In this document: one piece after another, positions 27,151 through 59,473 of the stretch
Position numbering within the stretch: the first letter of the stretch is position 1
Layout of the letters: every line of letters begins with the position of its first letter
Assembly: GCA_965113315.1 (NCBI GenBank)
Contig: OZ220364.1
From: Podarcis vaucheri
Taxonomy: Eukaryota
Reading direction: 5' to 3' (one strand)
Length of the DNA stretch: 64,000 nt
The notes under the pieces: generated by a model
The model's input: the letters and a program-made list of their open reading frames with translations, nothing else
Told to the model about the DNA's origin: nothing
Database searches by the model: none
Made by a program: the position numbers and the translations under genes

Positions 27151-27235
27151 CTCCAAGCAGTGAAGGGCTGGATGAGGGCCACAAAGCACATGCAAGGCTT
27201 TAGCTGCAGCAAGTGGGCCTGCATGCATTGCATTA

Positions 27236-30398: not shown

Positions 30399-33300
30399 CT
30401 AATCAAGCAAGCTTTTAAAATACAGGGGGGGGGGGAGATTCCTATTAGTTAGAGGGGCTGCCAACAAGGGAAGATCTGTTTCTAATTGGTATGCTGGAAG
30501 TCCCAGGCCCATTATCTAGCAGGTCTCATGAAAAACAACTGAGTAGCAGGTGCTACTAACCTTTCTCTGCCTGAGAACCTAAGAAAGTCACTAGCCAAAC
30601 AGAGTAGACAATATGGTCTAGATGGACCATAATCTGACCTGATGCAAGGCAACTTCCTAACAGGCACCTACCACCTTACAGATAATTGGAGACAATTAAC
30701 TCCTTCTTCCAGATTTGATGAAGAAAAGATACTTGAAACTTACATTTCTTTCTCTCCACTACTTCAATTCAAAAACCAGAACACAAAATTTGCCACTGTG
30801 TTTTAACACCAATAACTACACTTAAATATATATTTATAATACTGATGGAACATGAAGTTTTATTTCTTTTTTAAAACAGGGGTGTGTTTTTTTGTTAAGG
30901 AGAGAATATTCTATATTCCCAAATTTGATTAAATGTAAAATATTAAGATGACATTTTCTGCTGGAAATAAGTAGTAGATTTTATTAAATCATATAATCTT
31001 ACACCTAAGGGAAACTGTCCTTTTTATTAGTCTTTTGCATTATGTACCTATAACAAGTCTTAGGGATGTCATGCTTAAACATTACTAAAAGGACTCAAGT
31101 TTAAATGACAGAACTACAGATTTCCCTGTCAATTGTGAAAAGCACACAGGAGTTTAAAAAACATGGATTCCCTGCAGTAACATCTGGAACTGGGACTGAC
31201 ATCCATATTTATTGCACTGAAACCTGCCCCTGTTCTATTTACAGTTGCAGTCCACTTTCCATTTTTAAACTCTGCCTTTCAGGTTGTGTCTACAAATGTA
31301 CATCAGCTATAAGATATTATGTGGGATGAAGTGACTAATGATATTCTCAGACAAATTTTCAGATGATCAGAAATATTTTTCAAAAGTATTTGAAAAAGGC
31401 AGAATAAAATCAAAAGATGGGGAAGACAGGGAAAAGACACAATGAAGAAGTCTGTAAATAAAATATCACGTTCAACTGGAGTTTCTAAGGAAAGGAATGA
31501 GACAGGCTCACTGAATTGCTAGCTGGATGTTAACTGGCAGGCTGCAAGAGGCACGTGAGAGTGTGTAGAGCAGACAAGGATGGAAGGCAGTAACAAAAGA
31601 TCTATTTGCCACACAGAAAACAATGAAGAGAAGTTGCTCTTTTCTAATTCAGGGGCATGCTGACTGATGCTCCACATTCAGGAGCATCAGAATGAAACTG
31701 CCCAGCACCTGGCAATGTGTTCACTGCATCCACTTCTGTACCACAGCAATGAATCATCAGGACATACAGTTAGCAAACAAGTTCAAAATAGTTCCAATAT
31801 TATCAAGAACAGTGCAACACTAGCATGAGATACCATAGGTGAACTGGCAGATGAGGTTAACTGCCCAGGGGCAAGGCAGATCACACACACACACACCACT
31901 CACCCACAATCTCCAGGTTAGAAATAACTGCTGGGAGACTGAAGAAGTGCACACTAGATACAGAATAAGGGAAATTATTTGAGATTGGAAATCTTTAGTC
32001 CAGGCAATAAATAGGTCTACTTATCAGAGCTTCATGAAGGCACAAATGCAGCTCTGTGGGTGCCTTGGGCTCCCAGCCATGGAAGACTGTAGAAGAGATT
32101 CCTATGGAGAAAGATGACTAGGACTTTCAGCCTAGCTACACCAGACAGAAAACATCTACACTTGAATCTCCTAATGTTTTCTGAGCTCTTCACCAAAAGA
32201 GCCAAGCTTTACCTGGACAAAGCTGCTATTTTTCTACTCTAAGGCTAACAAGCAGCTTTGAGGTGCGATGTGATTAGGAAAATTGTGCAAGGGAAAAGGG
32301 TAAACCCTACACTTTCAATGCTGCTGTTCCAAATTCAGAGAACTAGCACCTGCTTTACATTAAAAATGAAGACACCACGAGGTTTTATTAGAGACCTCTC
32401 ACTTTTCATGAAGTTTAACCCTTTCAAAAAAGTGCAGAGGGCTCAAGATTCTAGGCTCGAATCCATGCATGCTCCCACATTGGCACAGTTGGCAGGTGAA
32501 CTCTTTAGAAAACATTACTAGGACAAACAACAGAATCACATCATTTCTTGGGGGAGAAAAATAGGGCACAGTGGTCCAGAAAATAAAATAAATAAAAATA
32601 CAGACTCAACTTTTATAGGTTCCCAAGGTAAATGGCAAACCCTCCCCAGCTTTCCTTGTCAACTCATACTGGCCTTATTGGAGTTTCAAGAAAGAAATTA
32701 AAGCTAGAAACCAGTATGCTGCCAACAGCTTCCATTTAACTTGTGTGATCACAGGTTTATGTGCTTGGTCAAAGAAAATAAATGTCAGAAGGTGGTGGAG
32801 AGGAAACATTGGCAATCCCACCAACCATTGCACTCACCCTGGGAGATTGTTTGGAGGTGCGGGGAGAGTCTGTAGCAACCTTGGGAGAGTGTGTGCAGCC
32901 TTCAGATAGAATGTAGAGGTGGCTGGAGAGTGCTAGGATATGCCTTTTACTGTTTTTAAAGGGTTGTTTTGATTATACATTATTTTGGCTTTATGCGCTA
33001 TCCCTGGAATGAAACCCCTGTGTAAGCCGAGAGTCAACTGTAATGCTACTCTAGTGTTTGAAAACTTCCTTACTTCAATTAACCATGTTAAAAACCAACC
33101 AACCAACCAACCAAAAACCCACAGCCTGTCATCTCAGAAAAACCTGCAGGTATTATCTTGACATGTCTACAAGCCTTAGCATCTCTCCATCACTCTCATT
33201 GTGCATTATGGGAACAAAGCAAGTCATCTGGGGGAAGTCCTGGACACACACAGGTTATCCCAATTGTGTCCCTGCAGACTAGATATGCCAGTGGAGGCTG

Positions 33301-33858: not shown

Positions 33859-33985
33859 CTAAGCCAGTACCATCTCTTTTGTTGAGTCAGCTCGCTGCTT
33901 GGCCAGGCTCATAGAAATAATAGGCTGGCGGGACCTATAGGCGAGTGGGTTCCTCTTCACTTTCACTGCAGTTCCCACAACAGTC
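33859..33985 (-). CDS. GRK6: GRK6 B-type tail frame of the last exon (RTVVGTAVKVKRNPLAYRSRQPIISMSLAKQRADSTKEMVLA*), used if the 2-nt microexon is included
   Basis: Frame stays open for 42 codons and starts like mammalian GRK6B RIAVETAA; usage is inferred. Confidence 0.6.
33935..33985 (-). CDS. GRK6: GRK6 last coding exon, A-form tail DCCGNCSESEEEPTRL*
   Basis: Long pyrimidine tract plus ccag acceptor; palmitoylation cluster CCGNC and PDZ-type TRL end of GRK6A; spliced CDS totals 1728 nt = 575 aa. Confidence 0.93.
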   Translation of the reverse strand, partial: DCCGNCSESEEEPTRL

Positions 33986-34948
33986 CTGGAGAATGAAGGA
34001 AGGAGGAGGCGGCAGGAGGAGGAGGAGGAGGGAAGGGTGGGGGAAAGCAAGGGGGAAAGGGAGAGCACACAGCAAGCACAGAGTGAGTACAGTTATTATT
34101 CAACACGCAGACATGCCACAGGATTCTATTCCCAGTCCCCACAGAAAAAGAAACCATTGCTTAGAAAATAACTTTGGGGCTCAGCACCAAAACCAAATCT
34201 GATGGTGGAGCTGCTTGCAGTCAGTGCTCTCTGGCAGCCAACCTGCAGGACTAGAGAGGGAGAGAGAGAATATCATGCTGGACCTCCTACTACACTCCCT
34301 TCTTCACAACCAGACTGTGCCTTTTCCATACCCTTTCAATGCCTATTTATGGGCTGTGAGGAATCTAATTGTACTTGGCCATGGCCAAGTACAGAAGTAG
34401 GAACGGAAATTATTCTATGTTAGTGAGCCCAGGACCATAGTGGGGTCTTATGTAGGCCTAGTAAAACCACAGCAGGAAACAGATAAACCCAGAAAGATGA
34501 ACCATTACTTCAATGGAACAACTGCAATAAGATAGGAGCATGGCCTAACTGTAGAAAGCAGGACATGTCTAGATCATCAGCAAGCTCTCAAAAAGTGTGC
34601 GGGGTTCTTGGGTACATGAGGGAGAGAGAGAAAACTTCCATTCTTAATAGCAAGGCCACATAAAGAAGGCATGGGAGCTGGAGAAAAGGGATGTTTAAAT
34701 AATAATCCAGCTGCTTCCATGGCAAGGGAACAAGGCAAGACATTCATGGTGCTTTGCAGGAAGCAGGATTAGTGGCTTGAAGAACTATTAATGAACAAAC
34801 AGCGTATTTTGGAGAGGCGGGAGAGGGGGAAGGAGAGGGAGGCACTGAAGAGGTAGAGTCCTCATCCCCTTGTCTTGTCATGTCCGCCAGGGGAGTTTGG
34901 GGCACCAGGTAGTCATTTTCCTGAGCAGAGCAGCAGAGAAGAGGTTGC

Positions 34949-34954
34949 TCACCT
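34949..34954 (-). CDS. GRK6: GRK6 2-nt microexon (AG, 34954-34953) / C-form terminus AGG TGA (R*)
   Basis: Minus strand ctcac..gcatgttttctctttccag|AG|gtgagc: branch-like motif, pyrimidine tract, acceptor, 2 nt, then a strong donor. Confidence 0.75.
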   Translation of the reverse strand, partial: R

Positions 34955-35991
34955 CTGGAAAGAGAAAACATGCTGTGAGAGCCCGGCCAGAAATAGCCAT
35001 GCCCTCTCCTAAGGCCTCTCCTGGCCTACAGGGATAACTACCACCAAACAGAGCAGCCAGAGCAAGACCCAGAGGAATTGCCAAGGTGAGGGATACTGGA
35101 AAATGATGAGCCCACAGAAAGGAGGGAAGATGCCAATTCAAATGGGCTCTCATTCACACACCACACCACAATAAGGCCAGGCTCCTAGCACTGGGAGTGA
35201 ACACTTTTTTCTAAGCAAAAAGCACCGCAAACACATGTGCTGTGCAAGAAGCTGTCTTTCTAAATCATGAAGACATAAGGGGGTTCAGGGACTAGTTTCT
35301 GAGAAGAACAAAGGACACTTTATCAAGTGTTTCTCTCCCACAGCTGTCTTAGTAGTTTTGGCATGGGAAACAGCCAGGCCAGATTGGCCACGACAAGAGG
35401 CATTTGGGTACATGGGGGACTATATTGCTTTCCAGCTATTTGTCCAGGCCAAAAGGAGCAAGGCTGTCTAAAGCCAAGAATTATTAGACTATGCTTCCAG
35501 CCACCCACAAATCTATGTTAAGTATCACACATACAAAGCTAGGGCCTCTTGGGTACCAAACCCCAAGACGTCCTTCCGGTTATTCAGAAAGAAAGTTGCT
35601 CTGGAAGTGGGAAGTCACATCTGGATAGTTTATGGAGCTTATGTTAGTAAACTGAACTAGCTGAGCTCAAATGCCACTACAGCAGCTGGCCTGCTAATGG
35701 GTCTGAGGTGTATAGATACAGAAAGATCAGTGGTGCTAGCACTGGCATACAACATGGTACCACTTGAGGAAAGCTGCTACCCTCTCCTCTCACACCTCCA
35801 CCCCTCCACCACCACCTCTTCTCCTCTTCTCTCTCTTTTAATGTTTTGCTGGTGCTAATGCAGCAGCAGCAGTAGCATGCCTCCACCTCCTATCTGCCGC
35901 AGGAAAACAAGAGGGTCCTTTCTCAGAGCAAGACATACTGAGAGAGGCGGCACAGGAAAGTGCCTATACCACTGCTGCGTTTAAACTTTTA

Positions 35992-36504
<513 letters not shown>

Positions 36505-36674
36505 CTAGGGGAGAATAAAAAGATGACGAGCTCACTATTGGTCTTCCCTGCTCAGGTCCTCATCGACAGGGTGTCTCCATGACACTTGTCCCAAATTAGC
36601 TACTTATACAATACCTCAGCCAGTCAGTTATGGAACAGCTTTGCACCCCACCCCCAGCAAGTGCAGATGACTCA

Positions 36675-37234
<560 letters not shown>

Positions 37235-38669
37235 TTAAAATGTTATTTTTGAACAATATTCTGGAACAGAACTTGAACCATTATTGGTAGAATGAGGTTC
37301 TTTTCAACTGAACCCGAAACACAGCTTAAGTTACTGGTTATGAATAACTTAATAAAAGCTGATAGGATATCAGCTCTTGACTGCACTATGGCCTTCTAAA
37401 TCCCCACATATGACAACTCTCAAGTAAAAAGACATCAAAATAATCTGTGAGGATTTGTTTTAATATTATGCTCTTATTTGCTCAGGTTTCTCAGCCCTTT
37501 CAAAGGCAGTAAACAGCAAGAAGGATCCCTGTTGCTTTATTTCTGAGACTTATACCCCGTTTTCCACTAGCCTGTCAGAAATCCCATGGCTTTAAGACAA
37601 CAATCCACAGAAATTACAATACAGAATGAATGTATCTTGTACACTGATAGACAAAAGAAGGCCGCTGGAGGGGAAGGGTCTAGTCCAATAGCTGCATTCT
37701 AGGGTATCCTGGATAATCACAGGAAGCATGGATTATTTTAAACATCAATCTGCATATTGAAGGACATAAAAGTTTCTTACATGAGCAAGCAACCTCCCTC
37801 CCAACCATTGCTTATTGAAGCCTCTTGCAAGATGCAAAAACTCTTAGCTACGTAAAGTGAGTTATAGTGTGGAGGAAAGAAGTAAATAAGGCTTGCTAAT
37901 TCTTCCAAACATCTGAGACTGTTATGCATGCAACAAGATTGATGACTGGGACACAGCACTCACATGATTTCATACCCGACCCTTAGTTCTTCTACCAATC
38001 TTTTTACATTTACTCAAAAACAAGAAGGGATTTTTGAAACTATGGATGTGTATTTAATGGGTAACTGACACTTCATAGACCTCCTGCTTGAATGAAACCC
38101 TCTGCACTGGTTATGATTGAGGTTTCCTTCAATTGCTTAAGCTCCAATAAGCTAACTGAGAGAATAAATTAACAGGATGGGACAAGGAAAAGCTTAAAAT
38201 GTTAAACTGCTTGATGCCAGGTAGGTAGGTAGGTAATCTAGGAAGGGATCTAGGATCATGTCACAGTTGCAGCTAGGCCATACTGCACCATACCCTACTC
38301 TTATTGCAAATACAAATGTTCCAGGAGCCAGATTGAAGAGGAATGAAGAACTAGTGAGTACAGATGAGATGATGTTTTCTGAGTCTGACACTAAACTGCT
38401 ACCAAGCTACAACTGCCCTGAAGAGAAGTATTTTTACAATTTTCATTCATTTCACAAAGGTACACTGCCTTGATTTCCTGGCTGAACCTGGCTCTGGAGA
38501 AGTCATACACACAAAATGAGATCTAGTAGCAAAACAAAAGTTATGGTGTACTGCACTACTCTGAAGTTAGTTTCTAGTGAGCAGGTACAAGCTTTCTCAA
38601 CGTACCCAGAGCCCACTTAGAGGTGAGCAGGCACCCCTTTTAAATGCTAAAAGGAGGGTAACTAGCTTA

Positions 38670-38981
<312 letters not shown>

Positions 38982-39518
38982 TCAGTGAAGGCGAACACAG
39001 TTTGCACACAACAGGTCCCAGATTCACATCCTAGTATTTCCAAGTACAGCTGGAAAAAACTAACTCTAGTGAGCCACTGCCCATCAACATAGATAATATT
39101 GAGCTAGGTGGACCAATGTTCAGGCAGCTAGCTATGAGCTCAACAGAACTGGTCAGACTTACGCTAGTGTTGCCAAGTGCAATTCCAAATCTCATGTTTA
39201 ATGTAGTGGCAGTGTAAAGTACAGTACTTGCAACTGCTTTAAGAAGAAGCAGCAGGCAGGAAAGGGAATGCTTAACACAGTCCCCAAGCTAGGGTTCAGT
39301 GATGTGCCACAAAGAGGAGCCATCTCATCATGTACACCTTTGTAATATACTTTAGTCTTTGGCAGGATTCACCTAATGATTCCCCATAAGCAGAAGCCCT
39401 GTGCAAGGTCTTCCACTGGGTAAAAGTGCTCCCCCCACCAAAAAAACCCCAGAGCCATAGCTATGGCGTGGCGGCGGCTAGCCAGGTTTTTGCCCCAGGT
39501 GAAGCCCCCAGAGGCTTC

Positions 39519-39520
<2 letters not shown>

Positions 39521-39553
<33 letters not shown>
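39521..39553. repeat. (GT)n microsatellite
   Basis: Directly visible. Confidence 0.95.
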
Positions 39554-39554
<1 letters not shown>

Positions 39555-40557
39555 ATGCAAATGCATGTGGGTGTGCCAAACTGGGTCTCTGACCTGGGTG
39601 AAATAAAGCCTAGTTTTGTCCCTGCCCAGGCACTCTTCAAACTTGGTGGGAGGAAGAGATGGGAGAACCCCCAGAACAGAGGAGGTTGTTCCATCTGGCA
39701 AACTTAAAAGGTTGTGCAGATGGAAAGTTCAACAGAGCATGATGTTTAATTCCTTCCTTCATCCTTCCACAATGCCCAACAATGTCTCAAATACCGTCCT
39801 TTTTTCCCCTCCAGGCAAACAATGCAAGGAAGAGTCAATGTCTGTAGAACATCTACCAAGATATACTAATTAAGTGAACGTAGGCTAACTAGCACCATAC
39901 CAATACTGTACTTTAACCACCACCAGGTTTTTGGCTTGCAGTAACAGGAAAGAATTTGTACACAACATGGTACCACAAGTCAACAGCAACACTGAACTCT
40001 GCTTGCTTTGCCAGTTCTACCCAATCTAAAGCATCCTTGTTCTGACACCTTGAAAGGGGTGCCAATTCTTGCACAATTTTGTTATCTAGACTGCTGCTCT
40101 TTGGACACCAGGAAAATGTTAGTCCCAAAGAGTACAAAATTACAGCTTTGCAGAAACAATAGGAGCTTGTTTGTTTTATAAGCACTGTAAAAAGAATTAA
40201 TTCACCTCCATCTAATTTCCTACGAAACTTAGGGCCCAAATGTAATTGAAGAGAAGGAATGCTTAGGATCAAGTAAGGTATTGCCAAAATAGAAGTATAG
40301 AATAGAAGAAATGGATTACACAGCAATGAAGACAAATGCACTTTCTGAGTCAAACTTAAAGATTTAACTGATAATTTAACTTCTTAGGAGACTAATATCT
40401 TACCAGAATGTCGAACCTAGGGTTTAAGTTTCACTGGATTTCCAACATACTAAAATAGCACCCACCATTGTTCTGAACTGCAAACTTTGACAAGATATTG
40501 CTTTTACCCAGTGTCCTTGGCTGCTGCACTTCATGGTCTCCATGTTGACCCCAGTCA

Positions 40558-40677
<120 letters not shown>

Positions 40678-40802
40678 TTATCAAAGGAAAGTGAGTCATG
40701 CAAGTGTGCAGTTTGCAGATTTCCCTCAACCCAGAACAAAATCTGATATAAAAACTGCAGATAGCAGTGAAGCCAGAGTGTTTAGAACAGACATTTACTC
40801 AC

Positions 40803-40840
40803 CATGGTCATCCAACAATATATTTTCTGGCTTCAGGTCC
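40803..40840 (-). CDS. GRK6: GRK6 exon 10 (RDLKPENILLDDH)
   Basis: 38 nt, AG/GT flanked; catalytic loop. Confidence 0.97.
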
Positions 40841-41284
40841 CTAATGGAGGAAAATAGATTGTGTAAGATATAAACCTCAATGGGTTGCTTCTCCAGGACT
40901 AGCAGAGGAGAAGCACCATAAAACATATAAGCAAGAATTAGTGATGCCAATATCACAGGAAAATATGAACTATATAGCCATACCTTTCACATATGGGAAA
41001 TTTGTGAGGCAGGGCCACTTTCCCATTACAAATTTTTCCCCTTCTTTCTTCCACTTGGGCATTAATGAGAGTCTGATATGTTTTGGATTCTCAGCTTGGA
41101 AGGAGAATGAAAACCTGTGCTGGTGAGTTCTGGGAAACTAGTCCTGCCTCAGAGGTTTCCTTGCTAAATTCTGAACAACTGCTTTTACAATATAGTAGCA
41201 GTGCTTAAGATACTGCGCAAATCCTTGTTAACATAAAACCCCAGTGTGAACCCCAGCTACACCTGGGAGAAAAGACTGTTCTCA

Positions 41285-41476
<192 letters not shown>

Positions 41477-42626
41477 CTACAACACAAGCAAGCCAAGTCA
41501 ACCACTAGAAAAGCAGAACAGCCAAGCACAGCATAGCACCTACACACAACTGGCACAATTCTGCACCAGCTATACACAACAAAATAGATGCTCAAAGCAA
41601 GATGCAGGATAATTTATGTATCTTGTACAGGAAGAGTTAACTTTGCATGAAGCTTTTTGGGTAAGAGGTGAGGAGGAGCTGAAAAGTACGGAGGGAGTAG
41701 GGTTAATAGCGATGGGACCTGACATGATAGTGAGTTGCAGATGGAGAGAACAAAGAATGGCAGAGCTACAACTCCCGCCAGGGCACTTTTCAGCCATTGG
41801 AGCAGCCTTCCCCAACTCAGTAACCTTCAAATATTTTGGGCTACAATTCCCAGCATTCCTGATTAGCAAAGGGCTGATGGGAGTTGTAATTGAAAAAATA
41901 TGGAGGCTACCAGGCTGGGGGGATATGCACTAAATGAAGCACTCTTCCCTTATTACTCTCGTCCCCTTCAGTGAGACAGACAAATCCAGCCAGACCCCAG
42001 AGTAATGTACTTTTATTATATCATCACAATCCTTTCATAGACGGGTTTCCCATTGTTTCATGCCATACAATAGCAATATTTTGACAGTCCAGCACTATGT
42101 GAGCAAAGTCAACTGTGTAGGTTCCTCCCTCCTGATAGCTGCCTGGCTAGAAGAGGCAGACAACTGAGTGGGAAAGGCCCACAAAACTGGCCCTGCTCAC
42201 ATGACCATAATTTTCAACTGTTGCAGTGGCAGTGTGAGACAAAGCCATGGAAAAGCAGCTGTGGCACATTTGTGGTCATGCATTAAAGCTTAAAAGGGAG
42301 AGAAAGTTTTCTGCATAATGTTGTATGAAAAAGAATGATTCCCCGTATCTTCCCCACAACATCCCCGGTAAGTGAAGAACCTGCATGAGCTGGTTATTAC
42401 TAAAGGGATCTCCATACAGCCAGATCCTAGTCTGCAAATGCAGTAATGCAGACCTATGGCCCAGAAATGTAAGTCCAACAGCCTTATGCTTTTCTTGCCA
42501 TCTGGGTAAGATTCCACATATTGCAGTCCTCTCCTGAATTAGTCAAGATTGCTTCACCAGGGTGAGAGAGTCAAAGACATGGCCACATTCTGTCTCAGCC
42601 TCAGTGCAGAAGTAAAGCAGTTCCTA

Positions 42627-42869
<243 letters not shown>

Positions 42870-43190
42870 TCATTACTCTCACTGAAAGCAAAAGTGATGT
42901 GATACCATAGAGATTAAGTAAATGGTTTATTGCGGCACACCATGAAAGCCCCAACTTTCACTGGAAAAATTGGTTCCCTGTCATGTTGCTGTAACAAGGT
43001 GACAAACTCAGAGCTCAGAATCAAATCCAAAATGAATGGTTGAAGGACTCAGTCGTGTTGAATCACTCCTAGTATTCTCCTGCTTGTGAAGCACTGCATG
43101 TAAAACTTGGGAGCATAAAAGATACTTAACACAGCAGTCAGCAACATGCCACCCAACATTCAGCTAATATTTCTAGGTATCAGCATCTTA

Positions 43191-43580
<390 letters not shown>

Positions 43581-43934
43581 TCACTACACAAGCATACATG
43601 TTTCACTCACACATGGAAAGTGCGGGATTCAGCCCGTTGTTCTGCAATTTATGCAAGGCATAGTATACACACAAGCTTGACAAACTAGAATACAGCATGG
43701 ATTAAGACTACATGGTTAGCAAGTTTCAAGGCTGACAAAATGAAAAGCAAAAGCTGATCTTGAAGAGGATTTGTTCTCACTATATGACCAGGAGTCACCG
43801 GCTAGCATTTTCTCTTTCACTTATCAGTGAAAGTATCAAGGGCATGAAATGTGTTCTTTACAATGTGCAAAAGGGTATTAGGTTGAAAAGCAAAGCTACA
43901 CCTATCTCTGACCCCATAGCAAAGTGGAGGTTTA

Positions 43935-44051
<117 letters not shown>

Positions 44052-45157
44052 TCAGAAACAGTGAGGTTGCCCTATGCCACAAAATAAAGAGAACAGAACC
44101 TGAGGCACCTCTGGGAGGGAAAAAAAGCAGAAATGAACATCAAGTTTTAAAGCTTGAGACGCTTCAAGGGATTTGACAAGCTCTTGGATCATAAGGCGAG
44201 GAGACTGCCAGAGACAGCAGACATTGAGAAGGCTAGGGCAACATACTATCCAATCTGGAGAGCAATAGGAAGGAATATGATGGTTACTTCCCTTTTCAGA
44301 GGCTGCCAGAGAAAGCAGGGCTCCAGATCAGAGGCTCTTTGTTCATACACCACAGCCACGTAGGTCCCTGCCAGAGCTTTTTGCACAGCTGCAGCAGCAA
44401 GACCTGGGGCCAGAAATCTGAATTATATGGGCAAATGCAGCAAGATGAAGAACACAAAGACAGGGAACTCTAGACAAGGCTCACTTTTAAGAAAATTACT
44501 TTTGATACTGCCACAGCTTCCAAGCACCACCACTACCATCAGTACAAAGTGCCACCACAATGTTAACTGCAATCATCCAAGCCTGGTCTGATATTTGCTG
44601 CCAAGGTAGTGAAAGATGCTTTAAAGGTAGGTCTTACTTATTTAAACCCTGCCTTTCCTCCACTGAAATCAAGATGGTATACATATGGCTCTCAGGCAGC
44701 CAGTCTTCCATCTAGGTACTGACCAGATAATACCTGCCTGGCTTCAGCAAAGGCTGCTGCATCATGTGCCTTCAGACTATGCCCTGGGACTTCTAATGAA
44801 AGTACATTGTTCCCAAGGGAGAAAGAATACAAGCCAAAAGGAGCATCACAACAGGCTGGGGTGACTCCTTTTCCATTCACCATCAAAAGCAGGGTAAGCC
44901 ATCTAGCAACTCAAATATTAATATTTATTAAGCCTTATAAGCCACCTATACACAACATGGCACCCACTGGCTCTCCTACAGCAGGGAAATAAACAGTACA
45001 TGAATTTTAAGCAATGAATTCCAAGACTTGCTGGTGACAACCCACTTACAGATGCAACAGGTTGTATGCAAAGTTAGCCCCTACTAGATAATCAGTGACT
45101 ACTGTCCTGGGAAATGTGCACATCATGAATCAAATTCCTCCCAATCCCCCCACTCAC

Positions 45158-45258
45158 TTGGTAGATTCCTTAAAGAGCTCTTTACCCGGTTCCTGCTCCA
45201 GTCTCTTAGAACACAGATTTACTAGCTCCAAGGGCACTTCAGGCACATGATCCACACC
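45158..45258 (-). CDS. GRK6: GRK6 exon 5 (GVDHVPEVPLELVNLCSKRLEQEPGKELFKEST)
   Basis: 101 nt, AG/GT flanked, phase-consistent. Confidence 0.94.
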
Positions 45259-45974
45259 CTGAGGATAGACAGGATCAGACAGGAAAATCAGAGTTCTGTT
45301 GTTTTTAATACCTATGAATTTATATCCTGCCCTTCCCATAAATCCCAGAGCAGGTAACAACATTATTAAGCCAACCAACAATACAAGAAAACAATGAATA
45401 GTGAGAACAGATAATCAGATCCAACCACAATAATTACATATTCATTATTGCAGCAACTAAGTATTCATAAATGTCTGGAGAAACCAGGAAGGCCAGAGTC
45501 TGACCCTGGAATGTCAATGAAGTTAGCACCAAGTGCCCCTCATGAAAGAAGCTGTTCCAGATTTGGGGCATCACCATGGAGAAGGTACTACTAATGGACT
45601 GGTAGAGTCAAATTCAGCACCAGGTTTGAAGGAGATCCTGGGCAAGGTGCCACTGGGCCCCTCCAAAGCACCATCCTGGGGTGACCCCAAGTGAGCTTAC
45701 AGAGTGGCAGGGGTGGACAGCACCAGGGGAAAGTGGCATGGTGTGGCTATGGCAGCTGCCCGGCCTTGTTCTTCTCCTTCATCACCAGGCCCTTAAAATT
45801 TAAAAAGATTGTAATAATGCCAAGCTTGCTGGGGGGTCAGGTTAGCACTTTGGGGAGGCAGCAGTGCTGGCAAAAATAATTTGTTTCTTCCGAGTACCTG
45901 GCAGTGAAAGGACAAGTGCTGGACAGATGCCGCCACTACTATCTTTCCTCCCAAATGCTTCTGGCTCCAGACAT

Positions 45975-46027
45975 TGTTGTTGTTGTTTAGTCATTTAGCC
46001 GTGTCCGACTCTTCGTGACCCCATGGA
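45975..46027 (-). mobile_element. extremely 5'-truncated RTE-BovB LINE (3' tail only)
   Basis: Minus strand ccatggggtcacgaagagtcggacac...(caa)n, same end as the 63.3 kb copy; flanked by ccagacat direct repeat (45967-45974, 46028-46035). Confidence 0.8.
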
Positions 46028-46303
46028 CCAGACATAGTATTGCTCCATTATGGAGAGAGCCTGTGGGGCATGGTGGATGCTTCTTCTTCTTCATATTTGC
46101 TCTTGGAGTGCCAGGCACTTAAAATGAAACCTCCTAGGAGGTCCTCAGCCCCCCACGCCTGCTGGGAGCTATTGCCAGGCCTAGGTACCAATGTTTACTC
46201 CCTGTTGGTAATATTTAGGCATATCCTTGACCCAGCTTGGTCTAGGGCAAGTGCAGCTCTCATTAAGGCAACTTTCCCTTTGTTTAGCTAATGCAAATCT
46301 CAC

Positions 46304-46381
46304 CTTAGGGGTCAAATACGTCTCAATCAGGAGCTGACCACACTCTTTGAGTTTTTCATCAGGGGTTACTTCATACTCTGC
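46304..46381 (-). CDS. GRK6: GRK6 exon 4 (AEYEVTPDEKLKECGQLLIETYLTPK)
   Basis: 78 nt, AG/GT flanked. Confidence 0.95.
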
Positions 46382-46540
46382 CTATGTAAGAATGAGGATA
46401 AGAAAGCAATATTCAATTATTCTACATACCTCTCCCAAGAATAAAAATGCAGAAATGATGTAAACAAACTACATATTCTTGTATAATCCAAGAACCACCA
46501 CTACCTGTTCCAGACTCCACTATGAGCAGAATATGAGTAA

Positions 46541-46766
46541 CAGTGGTACTTCGAGTTACATACGCTTCAGGTTACAGACTCTGCTAACCCAGAAATAGTA
46601 CCTCGGGTTAAGAACTTTGCTTCAGGATGAGAACAGAAATCGTGCTCTGGCGGTGCAGCGGCAGCAGGAGGCCCCATTAGCTAATGTGGTGCTTCAGGTT
46701 AAGAACAGTTTCAGGTTAAGAACGGACCTCCAGAACGAATTAAGTACTTAACCCGAGGTACCACTG
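46541..46766 (+). mobile_element. Tc1/mariner (Tigger-like) MITE in GRK6 intron 3
   Basis: Near-identical to 28500-28734; TIRs present, right TA intact. Confidence 0.9.
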
Positions 46767-46902
46767 TACTGTGAAAGTAATGAGGTAAGAATAAAGCCAC
46801 CTCCATACACTTGGATTTGCAATATGCCACATGCCAGGATCCCTTCCTTCAAAACTTACAGTTAATCAGCTCCCATGTTTAACCCCCAGGAAGGGATTCT
46901 CA

Positions 46903-47052
<150 letters not shown>

Positions 47053-48974
47053 TCAACGGCTACTAGCCCATACCACAATCAGAGAACATTTAAGAGAAGA
47101 GGACACTAAACCCATTTTCAAAAGAATTTACTTGATCTGACCTGAAGCAACCACTTTAGCAATCAAAGATTAGGAGAAGGGTCCATTCCAAGTCCTGAAG
47201 GCTATTCAATGGAACAGATAACCTGTGTGTCTGACTCATTTTAATTCCCAGCCATAAGATCTTCATGTTAAATCTTTATCTTCAAGAATTAAAGTGCTCT
47301 CTTGAGTAACTGACATTTCCTTCTGGCCACTGCATGGAACTACTTTTGCAAAGTCACTCAACTGCTTATCAGAAAAGTTTAGGAACCTGCATGGCCACAG
47401 CTGAATCATGGAGCAGAAAGTGAATTTCCAAGCAATATATCTAGTAACTCGTATGGCAGGAATGGGGAACTTGTTGCCCTCTTGATGATGTTGGACTCCA
47501 AACCCCCATCAGCCACAGCCAGCATGTCCAGTACCAGGAATTATGGAAGTTGTGGCCCAGCAACATCTGGAGAGCCACAGGTTCCCCACATCTATACAAG
47601 GGGATATTAAATCTCTTAGCAGCAGGATGGAAACATCCACTGCCGCATATCTTCTCTAGCAGGATATCAATGAACCTTTTTTTTCTTTTTCTATGTGACA
47701 GAATCACCACAACTCATTGCTCCCTAGGAAGGTGCTGCTGGTATTTTAAATCAAAGTACAGACTATTTAACACTTGTTCAGAAGAGGACGGGAGATCTTA
47801 TCAGGCACCAGCTTAAGGCTTGCTTCTTTTCATGTTTTTGCCTTTTGGGGTGTCATAGGTTTGTTCGAGTGGATGAGGGTGTGTCTCCCACCCCCCATTT
47901 TGGCTATAATAATAAAGACAGGTCAACTTGTCCACCAGAGGAGTTACTTGGCACAACTACAAGTCAGACATATCAAGTCCCAAAACTTAGGTTAATTTTT
48001 CATGGCTTGATTTTAGGCTCTCAACCTGAAGTCTATACACCAGAGGTGTTGTTCCCTCTCCTTCATATCGCTGACTTAATTGGAGGGAGTAGGGAGAAGA
48101 GGAGTGACATTATTTTTGAAATTTACATTTTATTGGTTTCAATTATTCATACAGAAAGATAATGATCAACAATTTTACTCTCTCTTTCTCACCACAGGAG
48201 GAACGACATTATTAAATCATGTTAAAAGGATTCCGCCCTCATCCCCTGATCTGGGCATGTCTTCTAATCTGAAGGGGACAAAGCTAGAAAAGTGACGTCA
48301 ACAGCGAAGCAACAGGTCAGCCTCCTCAGGGTAACTTAATTCAACTGTATTGGGTATAACTGAACGATTAGTTCACACAAGATGCAGAGATATGGCAGAA
48401 TTAATGAGCAGAGGCTAATAGAAGGCAGCGAGGCCAGAACAGCAATATCATGCGGAGAAGCAGTAGGCAGTCTCCATCTGTAGGCAAGTGCTTTGGGTTC
48501 GCAGAATCCTTTAATTATTAATTTCTTGAAGCACACAGAAAAACCAAAATGGTTATGGAGAGGTAGGTTATGGCTGTGGGGTACAGGCTGACTAGTGTAG
48601 CTAATGATCCCTTTCCAGGCCCCCAATTCTCCTTCTAATCAAGATTCATGCTCAGATCAAGAGGCGTGTGCAGAAATCCAGGACCTTGTAACTTTGCAAG
48701 AAGAAACAAGCCAGCTATGCTTCCATCCCTATGATGGAGGTGAGGAACCTCAAGCCCAGGTGCCAAGACAGCCTACCAAGGCTCTACCCTGCCCTTGAGA
48801 TTCTCCCCATGTCATGCCCCTTCCCCATCCCTGCTCCACACTGTCCTGGAGTGCTTTTGCCTGGCTGATTGATGTCCCTGAACTGTGATGATGCTTCTTG
48901 CAGTTTATGGGTTTGTTTATCTTCCACAGCTGGCAATATTTTGAACGAACCTGGCAGTACTTTGTAGCTCCACC

Positions 48975-49109
48975 CATAGGTGTAGCCAGGATTGGGGGGG
49001 GGGACAGGCCTTTTGTTAGGGGGGCAGAACCTCAGTTAGCTATGTATTTTTATTGATTTTTATTGATGGGGGGCAACTGCCCCTCACTGCCCCCCCGGCT
49101 ATGCCCACG
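48975..49109. mobile_element. small hAT-like MITE (135 bp)
   Basis: Imperfect TIR cataggtgtagccagg / ccggctatgcccacg; TSD gctccacc/gccccacc. Confidence 0.7.
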
Positions 49110-51623
49110 GCCCCACCCACTGTGGTGGAATTAGTTTAATCATCACTTCCCAGGAAGCCGTTCTTCTGTAAATCACCCCACCCCAACTCTCTTATGGAGC
49201 ATGTTGTAAGTGTTCTCTTCTGTGCAGCAGTTGCTCTAAGGAAGCTGTGGTTTCCTGATGTAAGAATACAGTCGAAGAAAACAAAGCCAATGCAGAAAGT
49301 GTGGAGAGGGGGGGAAGGGGCCATATGCAAACTGCACCATTTCCTTCTCTTGCAGGAAATGAGTGTATTGAATGAAGGAAGGTGAAGGGGTCAGAGCCTG
49401 GCAGGATTAGAGGATTCTTCATAGCTCTGCTGAATAATGGACACTTTTTGCAGAAAAATTATTTTCTACCCAGGCCACGTAGAGGCAAGAGCTTTGCTCT
49501 AGGCAGCTCTGTGTTAAACCAACCTGGTCCAAGGTCTCCGTAATGGGAGGGAGGAAAGGAAATTAACACACAAGAAGTATAAAAGAGTAGGGAATCTCAA
49601 GTTTCCCACATTCTTTCAAAGAGAAAGAAAGTCCATAGGCAGGGATGGAGAACCTACCATCCAATTAATGTTGGACCTTAACTCCCAGAAGCCCAAGTCA
49701 GCAACACGAATGGCCAGGGTTGATGGAAACCACAGTTTAATAGCATCTAGAGGGCCACAGACTCGCCTGGAATAGGACTTCTTTATACAGTTACTAAGAA
49801 CAGCCTGTTTTCACAGACACACAAAATGCACCAGACAACCAGCAGCTCCCTAGTCAATGCACCATGTCCAAAGTTATTTTGTTCAAACTATGACAGAAGA
49901 ACGTTCTGGCAAGCTGCAAACTAGACACTATAAGGAGATAGAAGGAGGACAGGGAAATAACAGGGACTTTTCCCAGAGCAAAGATAGTGACAGAGAAAAA
50001 TGTTATCCAAACAAAGCCAGGCCAACTGAGTTCAAAGTGGACAAATGGCTAGGCTATAAATGAAGAATGCAAGTTTCCAGAGTCAGCACTAGAAAACTGG
50101 CAGAAAACCAGCAGTGATTTTTATCTTCAATCGAACACAAGATAATGACCATTGTAAGGAAATGGAATATTAAAGTGAAACCACTTCACAACTGGGCTTT
50201 ATTGTGGACAACACAAGGAAACCCTGACATGGGCCAGCTTGGATCAACAAGGGGGAGGGGAAGTATACAGGGAGAGAAACTGAAAAGGACACTGAGCTGA
50301 AGGGACACATTAAGCTCTTTCAGGGAAAGGACCATAGTGAAGCGGTAAAGCACATGTTTTTCATGCAGGGGGTTCCAGGTTCAATCCCCGATATCTCCAG
50401 GCAGAGTTGGGAAAGCGAAACCCCAAAGTGCTGCTAAGTCTGTGTAGTCTAGACAATTCTGAGTTTGATGGGCCAAAAGTCTGAATAAGATCCAGAAATC
50501 AGTATTCAGAGTCTTATGAATAGTAGCCCAGAAATCAGCATGACCAGGGTGTAAGCAAATCATCGAGTGTTTAATGGAATGAGTTTCTCTCACTCAACTC
50601 AGTAACCTTTTATGGCAAACCCATAACCTGATGTTATAAATTTGAAAAGTAACAATGTTACTATTGAATGTTTATTAGAATTAAGGAACATCCTTCGACT
50701 AAAAAATCCCACAAAAAATCAGTACCACGTAAGACCTATTCAAATTGCCAGTTCTTCTTTAAAGAATCTATAGTGCTAGAAAATAATTTACACCATTAGT
50801 CCATAATAAAATAATAATAATAATAATTTATTTATACCCCTCCCCATCTGGCTGGGCTTCCAGAAATAATCACCACCAGAAGAAATCCAAATCTAACAGA
50901 TAAATCTTGATTTAGAGTAGTATTCAAGTCATCTATAAAAGGCCTCTTTTTAAATAATTAATGGTACTGCTGTATCAAGGCACATGATCTTGGGAACAAG
51001 AACCACTGTTGTCAACGGCAAGGAAATCTGTACAGCTCCCATACACCCGATAGCAAAGAGCTTCTAATGTAGCCAGGCTGAGCAAGTCCTGTCAGTAACA
51101 AGAAACTCTGTGCAGCATTCTTTTCTGCACCTTGGGCTATTTTCACAATTTTGTCACTCCCAAGAATTCCTTTGTCACCAATAATTTGAAGCTTGTCTGG
51201 AGAACATGTGCCTCTCCAACTTCCATTAGCCCTGGTCAGCATGGTCAACAGTCAAAGAGCAGAAACATCTGGAGAATTGCAAGCGCCCCAGGCTTGATTT
51301 GAAGGGATGCTCTACAGAGAAAGTCAACAACTTTCCCCTTGGATAGGCCTGTGGGCTGGCATCCTGAGAGTGAAAGAGGCCCCAGCTAGCATTTAAGAAG
51401 AAACTGCTTTAACTGCAATTCAGAAACCAAGCTTAAGCTAGAAGACTGCATGATTTCAACTTGCCAGGCAACAGTTCAAGTTTTCCCATACCACATAACT
51501 GCTCACAGCCTTCTCAATGAGCATTTTTTGTTCACTATAATTAGAGATGAAGAGCTGTATAGTTAATAGGTGGAAGAAAAGAAGCAAGCAGGCCAACTTG
51601 GAGCAGGAAAACAGGCTCTAAAG

Positions 51624-51944
51624 CAGGGGTAGGCAACCTAAGGCCCGGGAGCCGGATGCGGCCCAATCGCCTTCTCACTCTGGCCCACGGATGGTCCGGG
51701 AATCAGCGTGTTTTTACATGAGTAGAATATACCCTTTTATTTAAAATGCATCTCTGGATTATTTGTGGGGCCTGCCTGGTGTTTTTACATGAGTAGAATG
51801 TGTGCTTTTCTTTAAAATGCATCTCTGGGTTACTTGTGGGGCATAGGAATTTGTTCATTTCCACCCCAAAAATATAGTCCACCCCACCACATGGTCTGAG
51901 GGATGGTGGACTGGTCCATGGCTGAAAAAGGTTGCTGACCCCTG
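51624..51944 (-). mobile_element. hAT (Charlie-like) MITE with internal ~70-bp tandem duplication
   Basis: TIR caggggtaggcaacct / aggttgctgacccctg; TSD ctctaaag/ctctaaac; gtgtttttacatgagtagaat block occurs twice; opposite orientation to the 26897 copy. Confidence 0.88.
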
Positions 51945-52545
51945 CTCTAAACTGACATGCAGTTCCCCCCAATACTTCATAAGAACTTCAAAGGGATCAG
52001 GGAAGACATGGCTGGAGTTTTCCAGGAATGATTAAGCCAGCAGAAGTGGGAGAGGAGACTGCTTGGATTTTGACACAGCTGGTAGAAAATCACTGGTTCC
52101 CAGGGGAAAGCAAGTGGAATTAAGGAGAGCAGTAAAGTAGCTGATTAAAATGAGATCAGGTAAACTTTGCAAGAGGAGAAAGGCATCTCTAAACTTAGGA
52201 AGATGCCTTGTACCAAGTCTGATCACCAGTCCATCTAGCCCAATACTGCCTACTCTTGAGTAGCAGCTGCTCTACAACATCTCAAGCAGAGGCAGTTCCC
52301 AGTTCAGATACCCAAGACTGCATCTGGGACTTAATGCATATAAAGTATATGCTCTATTACTGAACTAGAACCTCTCACAATGCTGCCAGAGGGTCATGGT
52401 GATGCAATACTAAGGCAAAATAATTGCACAGGAGTGTTTGGTAATGACAATGCTACCGCCACAAAATCCTGCATCATCAGGCAATCATATGAACAAGCAT
52501 AGCTTACCATAGGGTGAATGTACAAGATCTTATGCCAAGCACTCA

Positions 52546-52830
<285 letters not shown>

Positions 52831-55800
52831 TCAGTCATATCAGAATTCCTTTTAAAGGTAGCCAGGAAATAATTGGCCAAATTTGCTCCAAGACTTTTCT
52901 GAGCACTGTCCACATCACCATTTCAGAAAAGTTCAAATATTCAGGTTAAGAACTTGGTTAAGTCACAGATGGTCTCCCTGTAACTAACCTTCAGTTGGCT
53001 GGATATACAATGCACTGAAATATGATAGTTCAGAGTGTATTCCATACCACAGTTACAGGTACGCATTACAGTCAAGTAACCAAATGCCAAGAAGGAAGAT
53101 TTTTTAAAAAACTTTATTCCAAAACCGATTTTTTTTTTTTACAAAATTACAAACATCAAATTCAAAATCCATATTCATTTTGTAACATAAGCCTATTACA
53201 TAATTGACTAAATTAAAATATACCTAATGGCCAAGAAGGAATAATTTATTGACACAGCCATTTCTAAATTTCAACTTATGTGCTAAAACTGATTCAAAAG
53301 TTAGCCATAAGTTAACCACTTCAGTATGAAACAGTGCATAAGGATATCTATCGCTTTAGTTCTTTCTTCCAATGAATAAAGGGATAGTTAATTAGCATTT
53401 TGAACAAAGGAGGCTAACTGGCACTGCAGATTTTACCATGCTAATAGGAGGTATTAGGGCTAATTGCCCAGGCCTTCTAGCTTGCCTTCAGGCACTATTG
53501 TGCATGATAAGATTTAAGGATTGAAAAAACTGCTTGTTCTATACATACCACCTACTTCTATACACACCACATACCATCAGAAGGGGAAGCCACCTCCTCC
53601 CCACCCAGCAAGGTCGCATAATTAGGCCTTTTTAACAGCCCTGAGCAAAGACTTCCAGACTGCATGAGAATACTTAGGTCTCTTTCCCACACTAACAAAA
53701 CTGAATTGGACAAGCATAGTTCTAAAATCTGCAGAGCAAAGGGTCTAGAGGCCAAGAAACAGTGACATGCCAGACTACCCATTAACTTCCTAACTGAAGA
53801 AAGATTTAAATCTGCATTTGCCACATACAATTCCAGCATCGACTCACACTTCTTACTACATATATGAGCAGGACTGAAGTTTGCTAAGCTGTTCAATCTA
53901 TACATACCCGTCAGCAGTACAAGACAACTAAAACAAGCCAGCCCTCAGCAACATGGTTAAACTACAGGCTGCCAGCCTGGTTTATTGTGTCTACTTACTG
54001 CCACTACAACAGGCTATTCAAATGAGGGTAGGGGAAGCAGCCAGCTGCATATAATATAGTGCCTACTACATCTTGGTACTGTACCAGCCAACACGGGTTA
54101 CTAGCCTGCTAAAGGGTTAGTAATCTGTATTTCCATGCTTATGTGCGTGGAGGCCCAGAACGTAAACTCCACGTAAGGGGGGGGGGCACCTGTATTCGCC
54201 TGAATGGAATTCCTGATAGCCTAGACGGGGGGGGGGGGGGGTTCAATGCAAGGGACACCTACCTATGTGGCGAATGGCAGCTATGGTCAGACAAACAACC
54301 CTCTCCATCCATCCATCCAAGCAAGCAAGCAAGCAAGCGGTATTGTTGCAGTTCAAGGACACAAAACCACTATAGGAAGATGAAATGCAAGGCCAGTGAG
54401 GGGTGTGACCTGGGGAGGAGGCACTGCATTGGCACAGATCTGAAGGCTAGATAGAGGTCTGAGGGCAACCTGGGCCTGAGGTTACCCATCCTCAGCCAAC
54501 TTATTAAATAAAGGCTATATTCACTACAGCTTCATTATAATCAACAGAAACTGGCTGAAAGGGAGGAGATAAGCACTTCTAAGAAACATGGCTCCAACAT
54601 AACATTATTATATGGAAATAATTGCCAGAGTGCTGTCCATTAAGCATATCATTTAAGACAGAAGGGACAGTGGCTTTGAGACAAGTTCTACTCTAAAATA
54701 TTTTACATTGGCATCCTGCTGTGGGGAAGATAGGGGCAGAAAGAACACATATGCATGGTCCATAGCAATTCTTGTCTAGGTCCCCTACCCCCCATAAGAA
54801 AAGATGCATTGCCTAAAAGAAGCTAAGAGTTGTGCCATATTATTGACTGTACAAATCTAGGAAGGAAGTGAATCAAGGCAGTGGGCTACACAATACTTTC
54901 TCACTGAAGGAAGGTAGGTGGGGCATTGAGAGATCTCTGCTGCAAAAAAGTCCCCAGCTTCACCTCTCAACAAGGCCAGAGCTGAAAGTCCACCTGCCCC
55001 CCATTACAACTCAGTACAAAGGGAAAGAAAGAAAACAGTATCTCAACCACCACTCCATGCAATTTTATCTCTGCTGGTCAGCGCTACTGCAGCAAAAGCA
55101 TTTTAAAGAGAAAAGGCAGAGGGAGTACAGTATCTTCTCCTGAATCTTCTCTTCTCCTTTATCACCAGTAAATATAGCCAGCCCCTTTCACAAGTATTTG
55201 AACATGGGATCCACTATGTATACAATTCATTCTCCTAAGAATTTCAGCATTTAAAATATAAATAAAATAGATGGTTAGATGCTGAATTATCCCTTATGGT
55301 TTAAGACTGGCTTCCAAGGTTTTATGTCATTTTTAAACCAGAAGGGGCTTAGCAGGATTTCCAGTTGCTCATGGGGGCTGCCTCGGTGTCATATCTGGTT
55401 GCTTCTTCCTTTGACTAGCAGAAGCAAAATGATGTAGCATCAGTAAACATACATAACTGACATAGGTTGTTGAATTCAGAATTTTCTTGGTATAGTTTTT
55501 TGGCTAGCTTAGAACAGTATGTTCATTTACATGACAGTACATACAGCCCTGCACTTAAGCTCACCATCTCATAGGGATCTGTACTATTTAAGTGAATAAT
55601 ATATTCAATTCCCTCCTAATTCTGCTGTTATTACCATAAGAGGGTTGCCCTAAAAAGTATGAGAATCTCTTAATGAGGCATAAGTCACAGCCCCATAAGT
55701 CAGCAGTGAGCCTGTAGCCTGAACCAGAATATAGCAAGCAGTAATAATTATTATTGTTATTTATTAAATTTGTATTTTGCTATACCCGTGGATTTCAGGG

Positions 55801-57451
55801 CAGTTCACAACATTTGAGTTGCAGAACATTTCAGTTTGGAATAAGCCAAGGCTAGAAGTACATGAAGAGACTGAAGAGACAATATACTGTGGTGTGAGGT
55901 GCTGCTTCTCCTGTAAGTAGCTCTGAACAAAGAGGACTGGGCAACTTGTTCAGCCTCAAAGGCTATTTCAAATGAATAGTTCCTAGTCACAGTACTCCTA
56001 TGTAAGACCACGCAAACAACCAAGTGTATATCTTTTTGTACACAAGCTGCTAAGTGGGTTTCAGTGCATGTACTGAAATATTTGCGTGCTAATAAATGCA
56101 TGTGTAGCACATCTTCTGTAGCAGATCTCATCTACCCATGCCTCCATTTCCCTTCCTCCATTGCTTCCCTATGTTTATTTTAGATTGTAAGTCCAACTAG
56201 GGACCTGTTATCTATTTTTTGTGAAGTGTTCATGTGGTGCTAGGTTAATCATCATCATCATCTTGAATGTGTACAGGCACTTTCCTTTCTGTTTTCCTGA
56301 ACAGAAGTTTTCTCTATATAGAAAAATTGTCACACTTGGCTTTAAGAGGGCATGCTGGAAATGTACAATGAGCTCAACGGCTTCATCTAATTTACACAGC
56401 TACTTAAACTCAATTACAAAACAGTGCATAAAAAATTCATGGAAATGGTAGTTCTTAGTGGCTATTGTATATAAAGCAACTTCTCGAATGCTACCATAGC
56501 CATTTCTGAGTAGTTACATTTCCTTCGATGAGATAGAACAACAATCTATACATGGCAAACTTTTATATGCCTACTTAAAATCAAATGACTTTTCTTATTG
56601 ATTTTAGTCTTCACAGGCTCACCTTCCTTGAGGCTGTATACCCAAGAAATAATTCCTGACAAGCTAAAAGGTCAGAGGGAGGGAGAGAATTGAAGTTTTA
56701 CACAAGCTAAGCTTTTCAGCCACCTAGCACAATCAAGAACTCCAGCCTGCTTAGCTTCATATGTTCACAATTATGAGCAAGCCTATCACTTATTATATGG
56801 ATTCAGAGAGACCCAATTCACAAGATCTAAAACTGTATATCTTATTGTTCGCACACTGAAGACCTAATGCCATCCAATTTTCAAGGCATATAGAAACTTA
56901 CTTTTAAGAGTTAAAGCAGACGTCTTCAGGACCTTAGAGCCCATGTACAATACAGAAATGTCTGGTCATCTTCTATTGCCCAGCCAAATGTGAAACATTT
57001 AATGGATATTTAAATTGGACCCAATTCCATTTGGACAAAAACTGAATAGAAGAAGTGATGGGGAACCCTAAACTCTTGCCAGAAAGCCTTTCAGGCCTAA
57101 TGGCCTGGCAGCTTCTCTTAAAAACAAAGGTCAGTAATTCGTGGCAAGGAATACTTAGGCCTCAGTATCATATACAGATTTCATACAGCCTTAAGTTTAT
57201 CAATGCTGAACTCAATTTTTATTTCTCATCAAAAAATCCATTCCTCAATTCTCTCATCCAAATCTGATGAGAGAAAGAAGCTGCCCATGTTATTTTTGCT
57301 TCACAACCCACTTCATAAAACTTCGTATAAATCAAAAACTCCAATTTTAATCTTTCACCATATTTTTACTCTTGGCTTCCCATGATTCAGTATATGAATG
57401 CTTTAATCCATGGCAGTACAAAACCCTGTGAATTAAGTACTTTGAATAAAC

Positions 57452-57703
57452 CAGGGGTCAGAAAACTTTTTCAGCAGGGGGCCAGTCCACTGTCCCTCAC
57501 ACCTTATGGGTGGGGCACACTATATTGGGGGGGGGGGGAATGAATGAATTCCTATGCCCCAAAATTAACCCAGAGATGCATTTTAAATAAAAGCACACAT
57601 TCTACTCATGTAAAAACACGCTGATTCACGGACCGTTCACAGGCCAGATATAGAAGGCTACTGGGCCGAATCTGGCCCCTGGGCCTTAGTTCGCCTACCC
57701 ATG
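57452..57703 (+). mobile_element. hAT (Charlie-like) MITE
   Basis: Same family as 26897-27150; TSD gaataaac/gaatatac. Confidence 0.85.
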
Positions 57704-58543
57704 GAATATACATTTGCTGTAATTCTAAGGTTTAGGGTTTGTTTCCTTTTTTAACAAGGCCTTTAACAAGAGCAGTTCTTAGAAATTCTAACTTTATACA
57801 GCTTCTGTCTGTTGAAGTTACCAAATGATTAAGAAACACCTGTTTCTCTGGATGAAAGGAACCCAGATTCATTGCCAAAGAGCCAGAGAGTACAAAGCTC
57901 TTAAAATCTCTTTTGATTAGCATTATGTTGTAGCTCTTTCATGCTTGAGCCACTTCCACTATAAAACGTTCTACATTTAAGACTCGCACAACAGTTTGGT
58001 TGATTTACTTTCATTTCACACAAATTATGCATTTAAATGGCTAGTGTGGGCATGTATATACCTGTATAATAAAAAAGCTTTTAGGAGAATGGCATGTATA
58101 GCTGAAAAAGCTAGGGTGGCAAGCTAAGAATGGACAGTGATGGTTTTAATATTCACTGTCTTTAGAGTGAAATAAATGCCAGGACAACTTAGGCAGCCAA
58201 AACCTTCAGCAACACAACCTCAGGTAGCAATAATTTTGCATTAAAGGCTGAGTATCGTCTGGCTGAAGATATTAATTAGGCAGTGTGTTTATAGCATACT
58301 GTGAAGTAGGCTAATTGAAAACTATGGGGTAGGTATAATCTACTGTACTGTCATAACATTACACAGAATTTGGTTCTGAGTTGAGAACTGAACAACTGGA
58401 GGCACCCAGTTTTCATTTACAAAACGTAAGTACTTGGAAGTCTCAAGAACTAAACCAGAGGGGGATAGGACTTCCACATTCAGGTGGTGTGACTTCAGTA
58501 TTCTCATGCCCCTTCTTACTGACTAGCAAAAAGAGGACATATA

Positions 58544-59179: not shown

Positions 59180-59233
59180 TAATTCTAAATAAGCGGCTCT
59201 ATAGAGATTCCTATGTTCTACCAAATCTTGCTG

Positions 59234-59473
59234 TAAAGGTAAAGAACCCCTGACAGTTAAGTCCAGTCACAGGCGACTCTGGGGTTGAGGCGCTCATCTC
59301 GCTTTACGGGCCATGGGAGCCGGCATTTGTCTGCAGTTTTCCCTAGTCATGTGGCCAGCATGACTAAGCCGCTTTTGGCGCAACAGAACACCAAAACTAG
59401 AGCAGCGCACAGAAATGCTGTTTAGCCCAAGTGGCTCAGTGGTTTAGACCACAGCACCACCCCTATGAGTCCC
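59234..59473 (-). mobile_element. Sauria SINE, internally deleted
   Basis: Minus strand ends in ctttaccttta tail and starts ggtggtgctgtggtctaaaccactgagcc; shares the ctggccacatgac core with the 62257 copy. Confidence 0.75.

Follow-up and report, generated by a model that had tools for sequence, protein, structure and literature searches.

The stretch of DNA that was analysed (64,000 nucleotides of Podarcis vaucheri contig OZ220364.1; hereafter, the window) carries the GRK6 gene on the minus strand. A tblastn search with the lizard GRK6 protein P0002, combined with canonical splice borders, gave 16 coding exons for the A form; the 15 exons ahead of the last intron total 1677 nt, and the last intron measures 2384 nt. 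The A form was identical to the gecko protein P0023 at 548 of 575 positions, to P0002 at 544/575, and to a rodent GRK6 at 495/575, as would be expected of a squamate. In agreement with a GRK6 orthologue, the closest named relatives were GRK6 proteins, and the 16 exons ended in an A tail with three cysteines and a TRL end. Two GRK6 paralogues were located elsewhere in the P. vaucheri genome. PRR7-like coding segments were found downstream of GRK6 at 6604-4954 (minus strand); PRR7 is also fused to GRK6 in the fish prediction P0211. In addition, the window contains dispersed repeats of two families (150–250 nt, 81–91% alike), which are likely short mobile elements. Splice sites were scored with matrices trained on the 15 acceptors and 15 donors of GRK6 itself, and the branch-point call followed the general consensus. 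The features are as follows:

33935..61267, minus strand: GRK6 coding span, 16 exons (A form), from tblastn with lizard GRK6 P0002 and splice borders
36370..36504, minus strand: exon 15, 135 nt, ending in phase 0, the last exon common to the A, B, and C forms; encodes an amphipathic helix
34955..36369, minus strand: 1415 nt of the last intron lying 5' of the 2-nt exon, from sequence
34975..34979, minus strand: predicted branch-point-like motif, with its A at -22 from the acceptor, from sequence
34955..34973, minus strand: GCATG, pyrimidine tract, and CAG acceptor (8.0 bits; acceptor AG at 34956-34955)
34953..34954, minus strand: 2-nt exon AG, putative counterpart of human exon 16
34947..34952, minus strand: donor (10.3 bits); bases 34951-34949 double as the C-form stop codon TGA
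33986..34952, minus strand: 967 nt of the last intron lying 3' of the 2-nt exon; would serve the C form as 3' UTR
33935..33985, minus strand: last exon as read in the A frame, encoding 16 aa with Cys 561/562/565 and the TRL end
33859..33985, minus strand: last exon as read in the B frame after inclusion of the 2-nt exon, predicted basic tail of 42 aa, stop at 33861-33859
32384..32389, minus strand: first AATAAA 3' of the last exon; candidate poly(A) signal for all three forms
26897-27152, 28524-28737, 46540-46769, 51624-51944, 57452-57703, and 58543-58710: dispersed repeats

The original prediction, which placed a 2-nt microexon in the last intron, had quoted the sequence of 34979-34947 (minus strand) exactly: a branch-like motif is followed by a pyrimidine tract, an acceptor, the dinucleotide AG, and a strong donor, with the acceptor and donor two bases apart. 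The gene model also reproduced the GRK6 identity and the three outcomes that had been proposed. Skipping of the AG gives the A form of 575 aa, its inclusion gives the B form of 601 aa with a frameshifted last exon, and use of the acceptor alone gives the C form of 560 aa, which reads AGG TGA and thus ends in Arg followed by a stop. The B tail of 42 aa contains 9 K/R and 2 D/E. The site is present in a single copy in the 1.6-Gb genome of P. vaucheri.

The donor of the 2-nt exon outscored all 15 real donors of the gene in a leave-one-out comparison, and its acceptor outscored 10 of the 15 real acceptors. Both scores were reached by only one of the 494 AG-NN-GT sites on the two strands of the window, namely the 2-nt site, and by none of 2000 simulated introns, 27 of which had a summed score within 3 bits of that of the site; these counts are not p-values, since the thresholds were set post hoc by the 2-nt site itself. 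On the summed score, the site is outranked by position 44110, which combines a strong acceptor with a weak donor. This cag-AG-gt look-alike (44112-44103, minus strand; acceptor 14.1 bits, donor 5.9 bits) lies within intron 5, some 80 nt ahead of exon 6, and could be an alternative exon 6 acceptor or a product of chance. In the two P. vaucheri paralogues, no comparable 2-nt site was found within about 8 kb downstream of the exon-15 equivalent; their best 2-nt sites reached only 3.3/4.9 and 5.0/4.7 bits. In the second GRK5-like paralogue, L055 (G000:C37:39813483 and downstream, minus strand), the likely last exon starts about 1006 nt past the start of the exon-15 equivalent and has a weak donor 4 nt inside.

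A 2-bp exon 16 of GRK6 is listed as the shortest human exon (PMC6549324); it is the second-to-last exon of a minor transcript and gives a C-terminal variant (PMC9929638). The human A, B, and C forms have 576, 589, and 560 aa, B and C lack palmitoylation, and all three still attach to membranes (PMC9784940). The palmitoylation sites of human GRK6A are Cys 561/562/565, which are lacking in B (PMC11689595), its TRL end is the ligand that binds NHERF1 (PMC8042174), and A, B, and C all bind DNA and enter the nucleus (PMC3642199). The amphipathic helix upstream of the tail is described as conserved in vertebrates, in a section that does not mention the 2-nt exon (PMC3307776). PMC12632871, considered as a further paper on the 2-nt exon, was rejected because it concerns exon 10a. 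A literature search with few subscription journals retrieved no paper on conservation of the exon outside mammals.

The P. vaucheri site shares with exon 16 of human and rodent GRK6 (isoform C, NP_001004105.1) the gene, the last intron, the 2-nt length, and the three outcomes. The human isoform C (P0280) and the C form of the window both have 560 aa and end in Arg, and the A forms share Cys 561/562/565 and the TRL end. The match to the known human forms and the 2-bp exon, which the original prediction had proposed, was supported (PMC6549324, PMC9929638, PMC9784940). The two systems differ in that the A form of the window has 575 aa instead of 576, and its B tail is longer (42 vs. 30 aa) and more basic; moreover, human B and C are known forms, whereas those of P. 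vaucheri are predicted from sequence alone. A PKA site is described for human GRK6B, which the Arg-Lys-Ser motif missing from the B tail of the window would fit. By position and products, the 2-nt site is likely the orthologue of human exon 16. A similar case is the 4-nt microexon of MPC1, which is likewise very short, not a multiple of three, and flanked by strong splice sites, and 2-nt versions of which splice in minigenes (PMC9929638). However, the MPC1 microexon is constitutive and internal, whereas that of GRK6 is alternative, lies in the last intron, and alters only the tail by its frameshift.

We consider it probable that splicing at the 2-nt site of the last GRK6 intron, the likely orthologue of human exon 16, would yield three C-termini. 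Skipping of the site would produce A, which retains all three cysteines for palmitoylation and, as its PDZ ligand, TRL; this joint is present in an RNA contig of a related species. Joining of exon 15 to the acceptor with the donor unused would produce C, the donor's own G-TGA completing Arg and the stop codon. The C mRNA would likely retain the 967 nt as its 3' UTR, since neither AATAAA nor ATTAAA occurs in 33986..34952 or anywhere from the site to 32600, the first hexamer being at 32389. With no junction downstream of its stop, such an mRNA would therefore escape nonsense-mediated decay. Use of the donor as well would produce B, probably in two ordered steps via a C-like intermediate.

The tails following exon 15 were classed in 293 proteins, which form an arbitrary sample of entries, not species, with groups assigned from names; the sample included 120 of the 143 matches in one listing. 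All classed tails are annotation models, with DNA and read support unseen. Among the entries listed, the C form (Arg-stop) was found in 1/18 squamate (a skink), 5/23 bird, and 0/9 turtle entries, in the single monotreme (platypus), in 2/15 marsupial and 7/53 placental entries, and in 0/15 amphibian and 1/2 lungfish entries. A Lys-stop after exon 15 occurred in 7 of the 31 cartilaginous-fish entries listed (six species), and neither ending was found among the 79 ray-finned entries listed, two of which lack exon 15. The B form was present in 1/9 turtle, 8/15 marsupial, and 12/53 placental entries listed, as well as in five unnamed Logan fragments with mammal-type tails; none was found among the 18 squamate, 23 bird, 15 amphibian, 2 lungfish, 31 cartilaginous-fish, and 79 ray-finned entries listed. 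The only B form listed outside mammals was the turtle model P0066, which also lacks exon 6. B-like tails without the exact junction (P0031, P0032, P0062, P0100, P0103, P0134) were classed as "other"; P0031, P0032, P0062, and P0134 reach the B frame by another route than the correct junction, which bears out the expectation that gene predictors would mis-model the site.

The same junction products are thus carried by the RefSeq X2 models of the skink Tiliqua scincoides (XP_066470128.1, P0126; C), the turtle Carettochelys insculpta (P0066; B), and birds, so conservation in reptiles was already implicit in public annotation. The skink model upholds the suggested squamate conservation for the C form. 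As for the three-way switch in a squamate, the reading outcomes and lengths stood, but production of B found no counterpart in the 18 squamate entries listed or in the RNA contig, which showed the A joint only. A search of the turtle junction region against short proteins gave nine candidates, one of which was an intron read-through. In a metagenome scan of 50 loci, no other amniote GRK6 intron was detected. Introns were checked in the top two loci, L002 (fish-type GRK6) and L003 (a GRK5-type paralogue), the other 48 being weaker, and the DNA of the 273-nt L002 intron contained no 2-nt site.

Other short endings were also observed. Among the models P0148, P0150, P0171, and P0205, newt tails of two residues (PL, KL) and a whale shark tail of six residues follow exon 15, and a cyprinid model stops right after it. 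In the set P0075, P0076, P0080, P0167, and P0263, the A-type tail of sharks runs to 47–50 aa, has one or two of the three cysteines, and does not end in TRL, whereas the chimaera retains a 16-aa A tail with the TRL end.

The B tails of other entries shared 5–9 of the first 14 residues with that of the window and were unalike afterwards. We rejected this initial likeness as a sign of selection because the conserved A frame overlaps there and forces it. Used alone as a query, the B tail of the window found no relative (two candidates, none scored). The original prediction noted a longer, diverged B tail; with 41 aa in the turtle model P0066, such length is not peculiar to this species. It is possible, though we doubt it, that the squamate site is only an alternative acceptor of the last exon, switching between A and C, with the donor kept for its G-TGA stop and B absent or made in traces. 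Such a reading accords with the annotation of C in a skink and in birds, with the lack of B among the squamate and bird entries listed, and with an unconserved B tail that does not contain the Arg-Lys-Ser motif of the mammal and turtle B tails. However, the donor matches the consensus beyond what a stop codon needs, outscoring every real donor of the gene, and a turtle B model exists. Missing B models are, moreover, weak evidence because automated annotation handles 2-nt exons badly, and of the main sauropsid cluster, which has 640 members, only 15 were among the matches listed.

The motifs reported next to the site were found where the original prediction had placed them: GCATG at 34973-34969, one of six copies in the last intron, and three YGCY at 34935-34927, compared with 54 across the whole last intron; TGCATG does not occur in it. 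These are candidate motifs for regulation by Rbfox (GCATG) and MBNL (YGCY). Neural SRRM4-type microexons have a frame-preserving length and a UGC close upstream of the acceptor. The GRK6 exon resembles SRRM4/nSR100 microexons in being very short and alternative, but its 2 nt do not preserve the frame, and TGC is absent between 35054 and 34936, which includes the stretch from the branch motif to the acceptor. The second AG directly adjoins GT, and it could be considered an acceptor in its own right, i.e., a zero-length recursive splice point through which the intron would be removed in two steps to yield A. The second AG scored 11.4 bits as an acceptor with our small matrix, and a zero-length exon was spliceable in a minigene of another gene (PMC9929638). 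Nevertheless, we find a recursive function very improbable: the matrix, with its 15 training sites, penalises G at -3 too little, the intron has only 2384 nt, and the B and C proteins would be left unexplained. Moreover, an AG preceded by G seldom serves as an acceptor, and splicing normally takes the first AG that follows the tract.

No run recorded as RNA was among those listed for the stretch, which speaks neither for nor against transcription. Four of the 24 listed runs were aligned, all from a related species and not from P. vaucheri. X1 is a contig set whose RNA status was presumed automatically, yet one of its contigs is spliced at three introns: it skips the 2384 nt to form the A joint (depth 22.5), and the two preceding introns are spliced as well, so that both junctions of exon 15 are present. 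Transcription of the A junction is thus observed in a related species. Another X1 contig (34319-35049, depth 5.1) is unspliced across the site and carries seven differences, all six of those listed lying outside the motif; contigs of this set cover 33986..34952 at a depth of 5–9. The last acceptor (34040-33995, minus strand) has a long CCT-repeat pyrimidine tract, which attracts unrelated reads and, through a deletion, is 6 nt shorter in the contig of the related species. The other runs, X23, X24, and X21, gave only 54, 59, and 9 aligned reads, many of which fell within repeats. The bin depths of X24 were 0.07 at 36224-36374 and 0.86 at 34865-35015, with zero in both bins adjoining the latter, and the first-mate-plus depth was nil on the last coding exon. 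A fragment spliced from exon 15 to the site would fit these values, but we rejected this reading, as others fit too and no joint is listed. Of the proposed search for the three junctions, the A joint was recovered, and none of the four runs had a B or C joint listed; the runs neither show nor exclude these forms, since the raw depth on coding exons was 0–2 and contigs drop rare variants. The least probable view, that the motif is a chance occurrence or a dead relic and only A is made, draws on the A joint being the only one seen in X1 and on the presence at 44110, elsewhere in GRK6, of a similar motif whose acceptor is strong, but hardly agrees with the 0/2000 simulated introns, with a position in the same intron and the same three predicted products as in mammals, or with the C form annotated in the skink.

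We return to the likely orthologue of human exon 16. The switch was most likely selected for eliminating the acidic, palmitoylated, PDZ-binding tail and not for the sequence of the B tail, because C is more widely annotated and the B sequence drifts. The amniote age given in the original prediction is probably too young for the acceptor: it is probably older than amniotes, as judged by the Arg-stop annotated in lungfish and the Lys-stop in cartilaginous fishes. A more far-reaching scenario, which we propose tentatively and hold to be somewhat less probable than its negation, is that the site was present in the jawed-vertebrate ancestor, has acted for more than 400 million years as a switch stripping the anchor and PDZ ligand, and was lost in ray-finned fishes, with B as a drifting by-product. 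The donor would then double as the stop, AG-GTRA giving Arg-stop and AA-GTRA giving the Lys-stop of sharks and chimaera. The shark Lys-stop could as well originate from an unrelated acceptor followed by AAA-TAA.

The three-form mechanism is already known in mammalian GRK6, where it is textbook matter, and it opens no new class; only its likely greater age is new. The 2-nt exon marks a spot where gene predictors fail, and for the study of splicing, GRK6 offers a set of naturally occurring 2-nt exons that ray-finned fishes have apparently lost. The comparison suggests that the product conserved since ancient times is the tail-less C form rather than B, and that what selection maintains is a GRK6 freed of palmitoylation and of its NHERF1-binding end. 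If the Lys-stop of sharks and the Arg-stop of lungfish share the same 2-nt exon, the site would date to the ancestor of jawed vertebrates.
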